In this document: piece by piece, positions 1,835 through 50,261 of the stretch
Layout of the letters: each line of letters opens with the position of its first letter
Numbering within the stretch: position 1 is the first letter of the stretch
Source: Candidatus Kaiserbacteria bacterium
Lineage (GTDB): Bacteria; Patescibacteriota; Minisyncoccia; Phycocordibacterales; UBA918
Length of the DNA: 64,000 nt
Assembly (NCBI GenBank): GCA_016699245.1
Contig: CP064968.1
Coordinates: 640,317-704,316, forward strand
Direction of reading: 5' to 3'
Translations under genes and position numbers: made by a program
Notes under the pieces: model-generated
Told to the model about the DNA's origin: nothing
Database searches by the model: none
Seen by the model: only the letters and a program-made list of their open reading frames with translations

Positions 1835-3865
<2,031 letters not shown>

Positions 3866-5157: not shown

Positions 5158-5772
5158 TTATAGTATATCTAATCGACGCTGTACGATGTGAGTTTGAATA
5201 TTGAAATCAGTATCTGTATCGAGTCCGTTGTTCACATACCCCTTAAGTATGAAATCAATTGTTGGTTGTTTTGTGTTATTTCCACCACCACTATATGGAT
5301 CAGTATTTTTTACAACAAGTTTGAAGGTGCTAATAATCACATCGTTTGCGAGGAGATTCTTCCACGGGTCCCCTTCGATTTTTTGTTGTAGAATTGTACC
5401 CCATTGCAGACGATACCCTATACGTTTGCCATCGCGTTCACGATAAAATGCAATTGCATCCTTTCCGCCAGTACAATCATTAGAAGCAGGAGCTGGAAAA
5501 GGTTGGATAGCACTACTATCAGAAGTAAAGCAATTATAACTATATCCCATGCGCATCTCACGCGTCATACTATCGAGCCCAAAGGAGAGGTTGGTCATCG
5601 CGGTGTTAAGTGCCTGCGCTTTTGCATTAGCATCGATGAGTGTAATAAGTGTCCCCGTACTCACCACCATTACTATGGCAAACACTGACAGAGAAACCAT
5701 GAGTTCTATAAGTGAAAACCCTCCTCTTTCTTTATTTATATGATGTATATGAAATCTATGGTACATATTCAT
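5158..5772 (-). CDS. Type IV minor pilin (PilW-like)
   Basis: 204 aa. GGFSLIELMVSLSVFAIV is a prepilin-type N-terminus. Confidence 0.6.
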   Translation of the reverse strand: MNMYHRFHIHHINKERGGFSLIELMVSLSVFAIVMVVSTGTLITLIDANAKAQALNTAMTNLSFGLDSMTREMRMGYSYNCFTSDSSAIQPFPAPASNDCTGGKDAIAFYRERDGKRIGYRLQWGTILQQKIEGDPWKNLLANDVIISTFKLVVKNTDPYSGGGNNTKQPTIDFILKGYVNNGLDTDTDFNIQTHIVQRRLDIL

Positions 5773-6449
5773 TATGGTTGTTTTGATACTGTAATTTGAC
5801 CCAACTGTGACACAGTCACAAGAAATACGTTTGCAGTATTGTTGCTTGAGGTAACTTTAATGGTGACGTCTGAAATAGCTTCGTCCTGCGCTGGTGTAAA
5901 GTTCACACCTGAAGAGTTCCGCCCATGAAAGAGCGCCTTAAACTCGGGACGGCGGAATGAAATATCAATACCTGATGGCGTACAATCGTTTCCAGGATTA
6001 ACACACACATCACTCACATAGATGGAACGATCAAGTGTTGATGTTCCGAGAATAGTCGCAACATCAGGGTCGCTGTCTGCTATATCATTATAAGGTGGTA
6101 GTGAAGAATCCCGAAATTGAAATGCAAGATAGGTCTTACTTGCAGTTGTTGGTGTACTGCCTGGAGCTGGAGTAACACTCACGCCACGTGGATAATCAAA
6201 TCCTGCAGTACTTCTCACAGCGCTTATAGACTTTACCTGTGCCTCACGGATGGTGAGCGCTATCTCGTATGCAGCACCCTTCAGGAGGGTCGTGCTATCA
6301 AACGCCTTATATTTTACCGTCACCAATGCGGTCAAAACACCGATAATCGCAACCGAAATGAGGAGTTCAATAAGCGTAAAGCCACGTCGTTTGTACGTAG
6401 TGTACTTATTCAAAGAAAATGGTGTGAGTAAGGGTGAAGATATCTGCAT
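5772..6449 (-). CDS. Type IV minor pilin (prepilin-type N-terminus)
   Basis: 225 aa. KRRGFTLIELLISVAIIGVLTAL is a class III signal. Confidence 0.6.
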   Translation of the reverse strand: MQISSPLLTPFSLNKYTTYKRRGFTLIELLISVAIIGVLTALVTVKYKAFDSTTLLKGAAYEIALTIREAQVKSISAVRSTAGFDYPRGVSVTPAPGSTPTTASKTYLAFQFRDSSLPPYNDIADSDPDVATILGTSTLDRSIYVSDVCVNPGNDCTPSGIDISFRRPEFKALFHGRNSSGVNFTPAQDEAISDVTIKVTSSNNTANVFLVTVSQLGQITVSKQP

Positions 6450-7227
6450 GGAAAAGGTGTACTAAAAGAAATCCTGCGATGAAGAATGGCGCAAAGGGTA
6501 CTTCACTCTTAATTGTAAGCGATGATGAAAGAAAGTGTAAGCGTATTTTTCCCCTTTTTGTGAGCCGTTCAAGACCGAGTAATGAGAGGCTTACAACTGC
6601 GCCAATCCAAAATGAAAACACCACCATTGAAAAGACCCCTTCAAGCCCCACAAGAAAGCCAAATGGAAGCGAAAGTTTCACATCTCCAAACCCAATCCAC
6701 CTCCCCTTCGAGACGAACCACAATGCCCAAAAAAAGAATGCTACGGATAGACTTGCAACAACGTGTCCAAAAATAAATAATGCGTCCTCTTCCTGGCTGA
6801 CTCCATAACCGAGAAATATCGCAGCAATACCAGCCACAAGTAGTGTGAGTTCATTCGGAATAATCATATGTCGCATGTCATACACAAGCATCACTACACA
6901 AGCTGATACTAAAACCAAATTGAGTGCAAGGAGTACCACATCAAAAGCATAGGTATGCCATACAAGGAGAAACAGGATTCCAGTAAGTATTTCCACCATA
7001 AGATAACGCGAGGGAATATACGCATTACATCCCTTGCACGCCCCACGGAGCGAAAGGTAAGAAAACACGGGAAGCAATTCATACCATGAGAGCATCTTCC
7101 CACACGACATACAGTGTGACCGCCCATTAAGCGACCGCCCCGTATGCAAACGATAAATCACCACATTCAGAAAACTCCCAATAATAGCCCCAAACCCAAA
7201 AAAGAATACGTACCAGTACAATGCCAT
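6406..7227 (-). CDS. pilD: Prepilin peptidase (A24 family) PilD
   Basis: 273 aa, polytopic membrane protein. N-terminal CxxC...CxxC zinc motif (CMSCGKML...CKGCNAYI) and the conserved aspartyl peptidase core. Confidence 0.85.
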   Translation of the reverse strand: MALYWYVFFFGFGAIIGSFLNVVIYRLHTGRSLNGRSHCMSCGKMLSWYELLPVFSYLSLRGACKGCNAYIPSRYLMVEILTGILFLLVWHTYAFDVVLLALNLVLVSACVVMLVYDMRHMIIPNELTLLVAGIAAIFLGYGVSQEEDALFIFGHVVASLSVAFFFWALWFVSKGRWIGFGDVKLSLPFGFLVGLEGVFSMVVFSFWIGAVVSLSLLGLERLTKRGKIRLHFLSSSLTIKSEVPFAPFFIAGFLLVHLFHADIFTLTHTIFFE

Positions 7228-7229
7228 AC

Positions 7230-7934
7230 CTATATCATATCCTGTACACCGCCAGATTTCCCTAGGGTTCCCCTAGGGAAATCACTAAACCAATCGGTCA
7301 GTTCCTTTAGCACTACTTGTTTCTTATTGAAAATCTCGCCAAAAAGATCTTTATCAATAACAGTGCTTTCTTTTCTCATTATCTCTGATGCACCTATATA
7401 ATCAGACAGACTTGAGTATTTATAGGAAAACAAATAGTCGATTGTTTTTTGTTCATTCTTTACTCCATCAATCTTCCAATTCTTATCAATGAGTTTAACC
7501 GGATTTAAATGAATATATGCAAAAAGATATCTAAAGTAACGATCATCACATACAAATTCTGATTTATATGGACCTTCAAATAGAGTCCCTGTTCTATTAT
7601 TTTTTTTATTAAAATACATGGAATATGCAGTGCTGAGTTTCAGCATGAATTTACTTATTCCATCATCTTCTAGCGGGGTAAGTAAAATGTGAAAATGGTT
7701 TGGCATAAGACAATATGCAAGTATATTCACCAACTGCCTTTCTCGATCAACATCAAATACATTTTGTGCACCCAGGTCACGCACATTGAATGAATGAATG
7801 CTATTCGAGAGAAAAAGAAGTTTTACAAACCGTTCATAATCCTGTGGGACAAGAAAAACCTTTTGCTTACTATTACCGCGATTATATATGTGGTAATACT
7901 CGTTTTGGACAAATGATACACCTCGCGTACTCAT
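7230..7934 (-). CDS. REP-associated tyrosine transposase (RAYT; IS200/Y1 HUH transposase-like)
   Basis: 234 aa. N-terminal YHIYNRGN, HUH motif HFHILL and catalytic-Tyr motif YIHLNPVK. Flanked by REP-like palindromes. The 3' end of the ORF reads through a REP hairpin, so the true stop may lie earlier. Confidence 0.7.
   Translation of the reverse strand: MSTRGVSFVQNEYYHIYNRGNSKQKVFLVPQDYERFVKLLFLSNSIHSFNVRDLGAQNVFDVDRERQLVNILAYCLMPNHFHILLTPLEDDGISKFMLKLSTAYSMYFNKKNNRTGTLFEGPYKSEFVCDDRYFRYLFAYIHLNPVKLIDKNWKIDGVKNEQKTIDYLFSYKYSSLSDYIGASEIMRKESTVIDKDLFGEIFNKKQVVLKELTDWFSDFPRGTLGKSGGVQDMI
7255..7283. repeat. REP-like hairpin (gatttccctaggg-ttc-ccctagggaaatc), 13-bp stem
   Basis: Seen in the sequence, at the 3' end of the RAYT gene. 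Confidence 0.7.
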
Positions 7935-7962
7935 ATAATTTTATTAATTATATGACAACCCA

Positions 7963-8033
7963 TCAAATCTCCCTAGGGTTCCCCTAGGGATTACACAACC
8001 CTTCGAATTTCCCTAGGGGAACCCTAGGGATTA
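7963..8033. repeat. Two REP-like palindromes in opposite orientation (tccctagggttcccctaggga / tccctaggggaaccctaggga), a BIME-like arrangement; partial third copy at 8097-8108
   Basis: Seen in the sequence, immediately upstream of the RAYT gene. Confidence 0.7.
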
Positions 8034-8049
8034 CATCGGGATTAGAAGA

Positions 8050-8083
8050 GAAAAACAACCTGAGGGGGCTCAGGTTGTTTTTG
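8050..8083. terminator. Rho-independent terminator (11-bp stem aacaacctgag/ctcaggttgtt, T-tracts on both sides); terminates the major pilin transcript
   Basis: Hairpin plus T-run, 80 nt downstream of the pilA stop on the minus strand. Confidence 0.6.
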
Positions 8084-8166
8084 AATCTTCCTAGGGGAAG
8101 GTTAGAGATTATTAGTAGGAATTAGCTAGAAATAAGTATCTTAAGTGAGTAAAAAATAAATTGATA

Positions 8167-8595
8167 TTAAGGACAGATAAATGTTGTATCATCTCCAGCC
8201 GTCACTGCTGCAGGAGCAGCGCCCTGTCCTGCCTTACCGGCACTGTCTGCACAATAGAAGTTGCTTGCCGGAGGAGCTATCAAAGGAGTACTCATACGCC
8301 ATGCCTGTCCGCTCGTTGCGATTTCACAGGTGAGTGTACCACCTTCAGCTGCAACCGCTGCAATAATGTCTAATAATTTCTGAGTCCCACAAGCTCCAGT
8401 GTATGTATTACCGTCTGAGTACAAGAGTTCCATTTGAGCACGCGCGTTATTGACGTCTGACATCATTGCTGCATTTGAACCTTTATCTTGTGCGGTATTG
8501 AGTGATGCGAGCACCACTGATGCGAGGATACCGATGATAGCGATAACCACGAGGAGCTCAATGAGTGTGAAGCCGCGGGTAAATGTTTTTTTCAT
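8167..8595 (-). CDS. pilA: Type IV major pilin (PilA paralog 1)
   Basis: 142 aa. KRGFTLIELLVVIAIIGILASVVLASLNTA is a canonical type IVa pilin N-terminus with a C-terminal Cys pair. Confidence 0.85.
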   Translation of the reverse strand: MKKTFTRGFTLIELLVVIAIIGILASVVLASLNTAQDKGSNAAMMSDVNNARAQMELLYSDGNTYTGACGTQKLLDIIAAVAAEGGTLTCEIATSGQAWRMSTPLIAPPASNFYCADSAGKAGQGAAPAAVTAGDDTTFICP

Positions 8596-8636: not shown

Positions 8637-9128
8637 TTATGGGCAGACTGTAGCATTAGATGCAAGAAGATTTGCTGTCGCTTTCGAAGCTCCTGTACTA
8701 TCTACACACCATGTAAGAGGGGCTCCTGATGTCGATCCCTTCAGAGGAACCTGGGCTGCCCAAGCTGATCGTACCCCACCGCTGTTTGTAATATCATGAC
8801 ATTGTGCTGTAGTGTACGTAGCAGGAGTACCAATAGCAAAAGCGGTTGATTGTCCACCCTTATATTTGTTTTCAGCATCATGAATCATGTTACCAATCGT
8901 TCCTGCTCCTGATCCACAAACACCAAAGAAATTTCTGGAATTTGATACGTAAAAAACTTGTGCTTGTGCGACGGCATTTTTAAGATTGGATTTTATTGCG
9001 GCGTCTGCACCTTTATCTCGAGCGGTATTGAGTGATGCGAGCACCACTGATGCGAGGATACCGATGATAGCGATAACCACGAGGAGCTCAATGAGTGTGA
9101 AACCTCGTTTGAATGTTTGTTTCATCAT
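8637..9128 (-). CDS. pilA: Type IV major pilin (PilA paralog 2)
   Basis: 163 aa. The N-terminal ~30 aa are identical to paralog 1 (about 80-90 nt of identical DNA). The C-terminal domain diverges and carries a Cys pair. Confidence 0.85.
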   Translation of the reverse strand: MMKQTFKRGFTLIELLVVIAIIGILASVVLASLNTARDKGADAAIKSNLKNAVAQAQVFYVSNSRNFFGVCGSGAGTIGNMIHDAENKYKGGQSTAFAIGTPATYTTAQCHDITNSGGVRSAWAAQVPLKGSTSGAPLTWCVDSTGASKATANLLASNATVCP

Positions 9129-9275
9129 AAAAAATTATAAATAAGTAATATATTACTCCACGTAGTGTGGTTGCTATAATTATACGGTGTTTCTATATAT
9201 TTAATTGTTGGAGTGTGGACAAGAAAACCCCTCGGGCGCGCGGAGCGCGCCCGAGGGGTTTTCACTATGGCTATT

Positions 9276-50066: not shown

Positions 50067-50261
50067 GTTTTCTTTCCTAGACTCATAAATACAACTTGAT
50101 TATACATTACTGTTCTACTATCTTTATGTGGCTAGTCACACTCAATATATATGGCTAACTAGGGCTGTTTTTCTCCATAGGTCTGACCTATGGAGAAAAT
50201 GATAAAAAAGTTAGTCCTAATACGGAAGTCAAAATAATTCATTTCGACTTTACAAAAAAAT

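Follow-up and report, generated by a model that had tools for sequence, protein, structure and literature searches.

How a gene for a transposase-like protein came to stand inside a type IV pilus operon, and what the short palindromes around it have to do with it, is the question raised by one locus in the genome of Candidatus Kaiserbacteria bacterium (assembly GCA_016699245.1, contig CP064968.1). The stretch analyzed, referred to below as the window, comprises 64,000 nucleotides (positions 640,317 to 704,316 of the forward strand), and coordinates are given within it. The gene has a pilin gene on one side and pilD, which codes for the prepilin peptidase, on the other; its product is a Y1 HUH protein, and perfect hairpins bracket it. 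A sequence-only reading had proposed a REP-associated tyrosine transposase (RAYT) with its cognate repetitive extragenic palindromes (REPs), inserted into the operon. The explanation favored here, with a probability of about two in three, is that the locus represents a REPtron- or TIRtron-like unit, in which a long-resident gene, retained by its host, would code for a RAYT-class Y1 HUH endonuclease/ligase of single-stranded DNA and be accompanied by cognate hairpins. It is argued from sequence comparisons and by analogy.

Hairpins tied to the Y1 gene

The gene, its motifs and the hairpin copies around it are as follows.

7230..7934, minus strand: RAYT-like Y1 HUH gene, 234 aa (open reading frame, Pfam, homologue coverage and codon coordinates)
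7284-7934, minus strand: conserved part of the Y1 protein, aa 1-217 (homologues cover 92-93% of the query)
aa 218-234: read-through tail, a translation of the downstream hairpin (FPRGTLGKSG...), with pLDDT <50 at residues 222-234
7689..7697, minus strand: codons of the HUH motif H80-F81-H82 (in HFHILL), within the invariant M-P-N-H-F-H
7500..7517, minus strand: Y motif Y140-I-H-L-N-P (in YIHLNPVK), the Y140 codon being 7515-7517
7255..7283: downstream hairpin, stem gatttCCCTAGGG of 13 bp, loop of 3 nt, contained in a copy of the 40-nt unit (7244-7283)
7955..7994: proximal upstream 40-nt unit, with its hairpin at 7970-7990, tCCCTAGGG-TTC-CCCTAGGGa
7995..8034: distal upstream 40-nt unit, with its hairpin at 8010-8030 and the loop GAA
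8080..8111: decayed fourth copy, 78% identical to the reference copy, with 5 mismatches in the 21-nt core

The 234-aa open reading frame and both motifs are thus as they had been described. The palindrome reads tCCCTAGGG-N3-CCCTAGGGa (also written TCCCTAGGG-N3-CCCTAGGGA), and three perfect copies and a decayed one bracket the Y1 gene, within 180 nt; the earlier description of at least three bracketing copies holds, except that the spacer is of 3 nt and not 4, the N4 pattern giving 0 matches. The exact form CCCTAGGG-N3-CCCTAGGG is found at 7260, 7971 and 8011 and nowhere else in the window, against an expectation of 0.07, and its observed count was reached in 0/100 shuffles. The octamer CCCTAGGG itself is present six times in the window (0.24 expected), always within these three copies, and when 5 mismatches are tolerated, the decayed copy, at 8088, is the sole addition.

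The downstream hairpin, which corresponds to the 13-bp hairpin announced for the 3' end of the gene, lies inside the final 17 codons of the open reading frame and has a DNA folding energy of -13.4 kcal/mol (z = -5.8). Upstream, the two 40-nt units follow each other head-to-tail and are 85% identical, while their cores (7970-7990 and 8010-8030) are exact reverse complements (100%) separated by 19 nt. As single-stranded DNA, the two cores preferentially pair with each other, giving one stem of 21 bp that closes a 19-nt loop (-24.8 kcal/mol, z = -6.7). Since the flanks of the units are direct repeats despite the inverted cores, it is the 3-nt loop that appears to have been flipped within an otherwise co-oriented unit. 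Judged on its sequence, the pair is of the kind known as REPINs or bacterial interspersed mosaic elements (BIMEs), being inverted, closely spaced and predicted to form a larger hairpin, as the earlier mention of a BIME-like cluster implied. A search for a known RNA family among the hairpins returned only sub-threshold look-alikes of microRNA hairpins.

The association between gene and hairpins can be followed in relatives. Orthologues were examined where contigs were readable (L numbers designate loci), with the following identities to the Y1 protein of the window.

L115: 85%
L226: 71%
L116: 66%
L117/L118: 65%
L229: 63%

In 5/5 of these orthologues, from 85 down to 63% identity, the gene stands between pilin and pilD, and each of them has matched hairpins, one located ~50-60 nt upstream of the start codon and the other overlapping the stop codon or just past it. 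The CCCTAGGG core is constant, the loop (TTC, GAA, GTC or GAC) and the outer stem vary by lineage, and the top of the stem is kept as (C/T)CCTAGGG-N3-CCCTAG(G/A)G. In L116, both copies read CTCTAGGG-GAA-CCCTAGAG, a compensatory C>T/G>A change that is found in the upstream and the downstream hairpin alike; in L116 and L117, a TAG internal to the hairpin serves as the stop codon of the Y1 gene. For 77 loci of more distant homologues, sequence is available to the left and right of the gene, and 44 of them have perfect hairpins on either side whose inner stems are identical; an additional hairpin copy is found 0.8-5 kb from the gene in 6 of these 44 matched loci. The sequences of the flanking hairpins are lineage-specific, their tops having ...AGG(N)-loop of 3-5-(N)CCT... 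in common, and the type of top tracks protein similarity (the observed difference was reached in 0/5000 label permutations), to which shared ancestry contributes. The hairpins are tied to the Y1 gene, and within each lineage their copies change in concert.

Copies detached from the flanks of a Y1 gene are found in related genomes. The metagenome-assembled genome (MAG) DATDWZ01 contains two Y1 paralogues, 79% identical in DNA, that are flanked by CCCTAGGG-GTA-CCCTAGGG. One hairpin copy lies in frame within a Y1 gene of this MAG, and orphan copies lie in frame in its genes for RNase HII and a beta-CASP RNase, whose homologues of solved structure have a gap exactly where the hairpin copy sits. 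In-frame 19-mers have the coordinates L072:1444-1462 and L093:7411-7429. Hairpins placed within the Y1 gene, between the motifs HUH and Y, are seen at L082:4933-4951, L083:859-877 (decayed) and L049:3268-3286; a hairpin inside a RAYT gene had previously been described only for subclass 2.4 (Quentin et al., 2018; PMC6006769). In several genomes, a pair of diverged Y1 paralogues lies 1-20 kb apart, as at L136 (3-596, 1518-2162), L168 (6001-6633, 11357-12001), L189, L193 and on JBKJHK010000044 (L049, L071).

In a scan of species-representative genomes, a set in which the source genome is not included, several Saccharibacteria and Paceibacteria were found to have the exact core, with 3-6 copies in each MAG. 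About 18 of 40 copies from the candidate phyla radiation (CPR; L001-L112, for example L016:3521, L028:5951, L033:4951 and L036:2888) lie in long open frames and are read P-R-[GV]-[TPA]-L-G. From their sequences, these in-frame 19-mers look like palindrome insertions of the kind represented by Rickettsia palindromic elements or intragenic REPs. In three Saccharibacteria MAGs, five exact core copies each lie on different contigs and have different outer stems (CAZBMV01: L010, L016, L019, L079, L092; CAZQIF01: L023, L035, L068, L070, L091; CAYRYA01: L021, L033, L090, L096, L100), and no Y1 homologue was found near them within 8-kb pieces.

Class of the Y1 protein

The expectation that the protein would match the Y1_Tnp profile is borne out: with 35.1 bits over residues 64-142, PF01797 is above its gathering score of 23. 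Y1_Tnp is the sole Pfam match at E <= 0.01, and no C-terminal helix-turn-helix (HTH; Bac_DnaA_C, HTH_23, HTH_28) is found in the protein, whose C-terminal tail is short and helical in the model. The protein clusters (90% identity) that match it number at least about 8000, and the named matches come from Kaiserbacteria, Nomurabacteria, Paceibacteria and Minisyncoccia, with the labels "transposase" or "REP element-mobilizing transposase RayT". Across 35 aligned homologues, 37 residues are invariant, among them YHxYNRG near the N-terminus, M-P-N-H-F-H, Y136, Y140-x-H-x-N-P-x-K, S174-S175 and W215. The homologues stop near residue 217, and the final 17 residues, predicted to be disordered, are common only to the 85% orthologue. 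A phage origin finds no echo in IMG/VR, from which the family is essentially absent, the two relatives there having 26% identity.

The AlphaFold model of the protein (pLDDT 82, pTM 0.82) has as its top Foldseek match in the PDB the structure 4ER8, in which E. coli TnpA-REP is in complex with a REP hairpin (E = 1e-5; on the target, TM 0.65). It is followed by 2A6O (E = 1e-4) and ISDra2 (3e-4), the TnpA proteins of IS608, ISDra2 and IS200 all ranking after 4ER8. The signature Y-x-x-x-N-P defines class 2, to which RAYTs belong, and Y-x-x-x-Q defines the transposases of IS200 (Quentin et al., 2018; PMC6006769). In the former, subclass 2.1 is characterized by the motifs NH[YF]H, F-Q/E instead of W, Y[IV]HLNP and, in the proximal tail, SS, and by a length of ~238 aa (PMC6006769); it is equivalent to Group 1 of Bertels and includes most TIRYTs (PMC6006769; Bertels et al., 2017, PMC5581495). 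Its members were reported to have a C-terminal HTH and no REP-like structures nearby. The Y1 protein and its relatives (217-234 aa) have PNHFH, LFEG, YIHLNP and YSS, and thus the motif set and length of subclass 2.1, a correspondence based on motif matching only. As judged from its sequence and predicted fold, then, the protein is of the RAYT class and not an ordinary IS200/IS605 TnpA, with its Y-x-x-x-N-P signature, a conserved part of ~217 aa followed by a tail, no tnpB and 4ER8 as its closest fold, in keeping with the class first assigned to it. Y140, which occupies the tyrosine position of the class 2 'Y---NP' signature, is presumed to be the catalytic residue.

History, expression and the alternatives

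The neighborhood of the gene is that of a pilus operon, and Pfam confirms the neighbors between which the gene had been placed.

6406..7227, minus strand: prepilin peptidase gene pilD (A24_N_bact and Peptidase_A24), directly downstream of the Y1 gene
8167..8595, minus strand: pilin gene (N_methyl), directly upstream of the Y1 gene
8637-9128, minus strand: second pilin gene (N_methyl)
8051..8082, minus strand: terminator-like hairpin with A5/T5 on either side of its 14-bp stem, located upstream of the hairpin cluster, which would close the pilin transcription unit
7947..7952, minus strand: TATAAT, a -10-like box read from the sequence, 17 nt past the proximal hairpin and 12 nt ahead of the Y1 ATG
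Minus strand, 17 nt past the downstream hairpin and 6 nt ahead of the pilD ATG: TATGAT box

Along the minus strand, the order is thus two pilin genes, the decayed copy, the terminator-like hairpin, the two 40-nt units, TATAAT, the Y1 open reading frame with a hairpin at its 3' end, and pilD; the stop codon of the Y1 frame sits 2 nt ahead of the pilD ATG.

Several close relatives lack the unit. In L199, L201/L202 and L203, whose pilD products are 84, 82 and 81% identical to that of the window and form one cluster (85-86% identical among themselves), the Y1 gene is absent and the pilin is followed by pilD within 75-140 nt, with no CCCTAGGG. The loci that have the gene are more distant by pilD (L115 72%, L116 62%, L117 57%), their Y1 proteins being, in the same order as for pilD, 85, 64 and 65% identical to that of the window; the matrix of Y1 identities is congruent with that of pilD, and the two gene trees agree. 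No remnant hairpin was found at the empty sites of L199, L201, L202 and L203, the whole unit of ~0.9 kb being gone without trace, so that neither a precise excision that leaves a copy behind nor an insertion into a pre-existing copy is supported. No Y1 protein more than 85% identical to that of the window is found, besides its own, among the matches listed, from which it follows that the NCBI assemblies behind L199 and L201 are devoid of the gene altogether, as far as the assemblies go. In L199, the pilin adjoining pilD (5388-5882) lies on the opposite strand, indicating that the pilin-pilD junction has been rearranged in the clade without the unit.

The Y1 gene is intact and under purifying selection, with a dN/dS of 0.090/1.075, or about 0.08, in the comparison with L115, relative to which it is also better conserved than pilD. 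A sliding window of DNA identity along the same pair has no elevated tract around the gene, and a recent transfer by recombination was accordingly discarded. The simplest reading of these sequences is that the unit was present in the common ancestor, has resided there vertically for a long time and was lost once, in a sister clade. The word "inserted" in the earlier description, taken as a recent event, is therefore not supported: the unit is syntenic down to 63% identity, is under purifying selection and is missing only in one sister clade.

The same facts bear on the best of the alternatives, that of an autonomous insertion sequence (IS) of the IS200/IS605 type, whose left and right ends would be the outer hairpins and whose unit of ~0.9 kb would transpose as single-stranded DNA, having landed in the spacer between pilin and pilD or been excised from it. 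It would account for the presence or absence of the whole unit between close relatives and for the many gene contexts of the family, and the hairpins on both sides are co-oriented if judged by their flanks; it would also accommodate the two paralogues in one MAG and the several loci with two copies within a few kb. Against these points, the signature is Y-x-x-x-N-P and not Y-x-x-x-Q, the protein has 217 aa and a tail instead of ~150 aa, and no tnpB is present. Nor are there near-identical copies: the window has one, and the DATDWZ01 paralogues share only 79% of their DNA sequence, while the identical proteins P0021 and P0023 of the family, found on 9-10 contigs, always stand in one context each. 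The site of the orthologues is one and the same even at 63% identity, their dN/dS being ~0.08, and three to four hairpin copies accompany the gene where two ends would be expected, with orphan and intragenic hairpins occurring apart from any Y1 gene. Diverged paralogues, single contexts and stable synteny are properties of a RAYT rather than of an insertion sequence, and the autonomous element is regarded as unlikely.

How the hairpins are placed relative to the genes suggests that they have some bearing on transcription. In most members of the family (L119-L198), a hairpin is followed after 12-18 nt by (TG)TATAAT and, ~6-12 nt farther, by the ATG. In the window, the same hairpin-to-box spacing of 17 nt precedes both the Y1 gene (7947-7990) and pilD (7227-7283), and in the empty-site relatives a terminator is followed by TACAAT and the ATG. 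With a box 12-18 nt past the hairpin and a few nt before the ATG, the hairpin would occupy the -35 position, and the mRNA leader would be short or lacking. The TATAAT at 7947..7952 may thus be part of a promoter of the Y1 gene's own, as far as can be told from the sequence. In the arrangement this suggests, the unit probably separates strong transcription of the pilins from a weaker expression of the Y1 gene and pilD, and it would probably be the hairpins that divide transcription between the pilins, which are abundant, and pilD.

Taken further, this geometry leads to the second alternative, in which the hairpins would be transcription signals of an ordinary kind, the upstream one serving as terminator or insulator and the downstream one as operator or as stabilizer of the 3' end, and the Y1 protein a domesticated hairpin-binding regulator, or another factor processing single-stranded DNA, without any mobilization. 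The family-wide recurrence of hairpin, 12-18 nt, (TG)TATAAT and short leader speaks for it, as do the same geometry before pilD, its presence after the pilin terminator in empty-site relatives, and the stop codon supplied by the hairpin TAG in L116 and L117. Transcription signals, however, have no need of identical upstream and downstream copies that change in concert, the identical 19-mers in frame in unrelated genes of a related MAG are insertions, and the catalytic HUH and Tyr residues are invariant; signals alone are accordingly a rather improbable explanation. That the locus might be a decaying, functionless relic with chance palindromes, as the weak database scores taken alone (35 bits for Pfam, below the cutoff for NCBIfam) would allow, is hardly credible in view of the dN/dS of ~0.08, the 37 invariant residues in 35 homologues and a chance expectation of 0.07 palindromes per window.

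A number of observations weigh against the reading of the locus as a REPtron- or TIRtron-like unit. One relates to dispersal: 63 kb of this genome, ~19 kb of L116 and ~9 kb of L117 contain no palindrome copy beyond the immediate flanks of the gene, so that dispersal in this lineage is unproven and, if present, would amount to less than about 35-50 copies per Mb. The canonical REP foot GT[AG]G is absent here, the feet being gattt, aatct and aattt, and no conserved GTAG is found in the 44 aligned hairpin pairs; of the proposal of a RAYT with cognate REPs, the class of the protein and the matched pairs (in the five orthologues and in 44/77 loci) are supported, and a REP in the sense of a repeat spread over the genome is unproven. 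The NCBIfam equivalog model NF047646 (REP_Tyr_transpos) scores 47.2 bits, under its curated cutoff of 80. By sequence, the family is equally remote from TnpA-REP (E = 0.07) and ISDra2 TnpA (E = 0.04), values that do not discriminate between RAYT and IS200 when sequence alone is compared with the PDB, which is why the fold search and the motifs were used to assign the class. Lastly, hairpins beside promoters or terminators are common in the source genome, the window containing 20 perfect hairpins with a stem of >=9 bp against ~1 in shuffles.

Some of these other hairpins merit description. Three GC-rich perfect ones with a GCGCGC-type stem, at 1970-1990, 3272-3292 and 9223-9263 (cgcgcccgc-TTC-gcgggcgcg, accgcgcgc-TTC-gcgcgcggt and ...cgggcgcgc-GGA-gcgcgcccg...), may make up another small family of hairpins in a genome that is AT-rich. 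Another, ttttctccataggt-CTG-acctatggagaaaa at 50169-50199, has as its top 'AGGT-3nt-ACCT', which is typical of the hairpins on either side of Y1 genes of other lineages, and no Y1 gene is near it in the window.

As to the pilus neighborhood, distant members of the family (41-56% identity) lie beside type IV pilus genes (pilB/pilT, pilD, pilins, pilM) at L083, L127, L165, L183, L186, L193, L204 and L210, the Y1 gene being again placed between pilins and pilD at L165. Pilus families are the commonest neighbors among 268 open reading frames (N_methyl 13, Peptidase_A24 4, T2SSE 3, T2SSF 2, FtsA/PilM 2). A family-wide link was nevertheless not retained, as the enrichment is modest and the neighbors come from only about 8-10 of ~85 loci. 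At L116:7807-8362, a HicA toxin/NikA-like pair between pilC and the pilins constitutes a second small accessory insertion in the pilus operon.

Possible mechanism and known systems

By analogy with E. coli TnpA-REP and IS608 TnpA, the Y1 protein would bind the folded hairpin on single-stranded DNA, either on the lagging-strand template or in an extruded cruciform, and might recognize its conserved 'AGG(N)-loop-(N)CCT' top. Cutting and rejoining beside the hairpin would then involve the metal bound by the HUH motif and Y140. Such an activity could duplicate and flip hairpins, occasionally disperse them and keep local copies alike; the tandem 40-nt pair, the loop inversions and the in-frame copy at the 3' end of the gene itself would be its products at this locus. 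At the level of expression, the pilin transcript would end at the terminator at 8051-8082, and the Y1 gene would be driven by its own promoter, with the hairpin at -35 and TATAAT at 7947-7952. Expression of pilD might result from read-through, from the TATGAT box, or from coupling to the extended Y1 frame, whose stop codon precedes the pilD ATG by 2 nt.

A broader proposal, which is possible but doubtful, is that these proteins make up an undescribed, Patescibacteria-wide RAYT-like clade of at least about 8000 clusters that works on a new type of REP, a perfect hairpin that has AGG(N)-loop-(N)CCT as its top and lacks a GTAG foot. Such elements would be mobile at low copy number in very small genomes and often lie in frame in essential genes, to which they would add PRGTLG-like peptides as Rickettsia palindromic elements do, and in Kaiserbacteria the enzyme would have become a fixed part of the pilus operon. 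If this were true, the processing of single-stranded DNA hairpins might be functionally linked to the expression of genes for pili or DNA uptake.

Nearly all work on RAYTs and REPs has been devoted to Proteobacteria, and in the literature searched, RAYTs are linked to CPR or Patescibacteria only by incidental annotation. The present case would extend the idea of a "domesticated transposase" to a major uncultured radiation, in which streamlined genomes of ~1 Mb retain a RAYT-like gene under selection, with co-evolving hairpins. For annotation, it means that the "transposase" between pilA and pilD should not be taken for a disruptive insertion, the operon having long been functional with the Y1 gene in it, and a system as compact as a 21-nt perfect hairpin and a 217-aa protein would be convenient for testing the function of the RAYT class.

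Of the systems described, the REPtron (RAYT/TnpA-REP; PDB 4ER8; PMC6006769, PMC5581495) is the first to be compared. The unit shares with it the Y1 HUH fold and the Y-x-x-x-N-P signature, a single, low-copy and vertically kept gene (one copy in the window), and cognate hairpins that bracket the gene and include an inverted, REPIN-like pair. In both, a hairpin overlaps the 3' end of the gene and can supply a TAG stop codon, and hairpins are found in relatives within the gene between its HUH motif and its Y motif, as in subclass 2.4, and in other genes. Unlike a REPtron, the Kaiserbacteria unit has no GT[AG]G foot, its hairpins have perfect short stems, a 3-nt loop and the AGG(N)...(N)CCT top, the window has no copies dispersed away from the gene, and its protein belongs to a CPR-specific clade and scores under the NCBIfam equivalog cutoff.

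The protein motifs point rather to subclass 2.1, or Bertels Group 1, with its TIRYTs and "TIRtrons" (Di Nocera et al., 2013; PMC3733652), in which NH[YF]H, F-[QE] for W, Y[IV]HLNP and the SS of the tail are all found. The length is near the subclass median of 238 aa, genomic copies are few or lacking in both, for the present unit as far as the window goes, and the flanking repeats, some of which are self-complementary, can be read as terminal inverted repeats (TIRs). On the other hand, the Kaiserbacteria Y1 protein has no detected C-terminal HTH, the GGGGWSAS motif of TIRs is not present in its flanking repeats, and its clade is nearly always flanked by perfect hairpins, whereas subclass 2.1 was reported without REP-like structures nearby.

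Resemblance to the TnpAs of IS200/IS605 elements (IS608, ISDra2, IS200) is limited to the HUH/Y1 fold, to hairpins near both ends of a unit of ~0.8-0.9 kb and, for IS200, to an upstream hairpin adjoining the promoter or start; the Kaiserbacteria Y1 protein differs in lacking Y---Q and tnpB, in its larger size, in not being multi-copy in the window and in the stable chromosomal position that its gene has kept across deep divergence. Rickettsia palindromic elements and intragenic REPs have their counterpart in the palindromes that lie in frame in housekeeping genes of related CPR genomes, where they add PRGTLG or PRVPLG, but the CPR core is much shorter (19-21 nt), and in the window the sole coding copy is the tail of the Y1 frame. 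A RAYT/TIRYT gene with flanking palindromic repeats is thus of a known kind. What is new is the very large CPR-specific clade, the type of hairpin without a GTAG foot, its occurrence with the motif set of a subclass that was reported to be hairpin-free, and the long fixation of the unit in a pilus operon.

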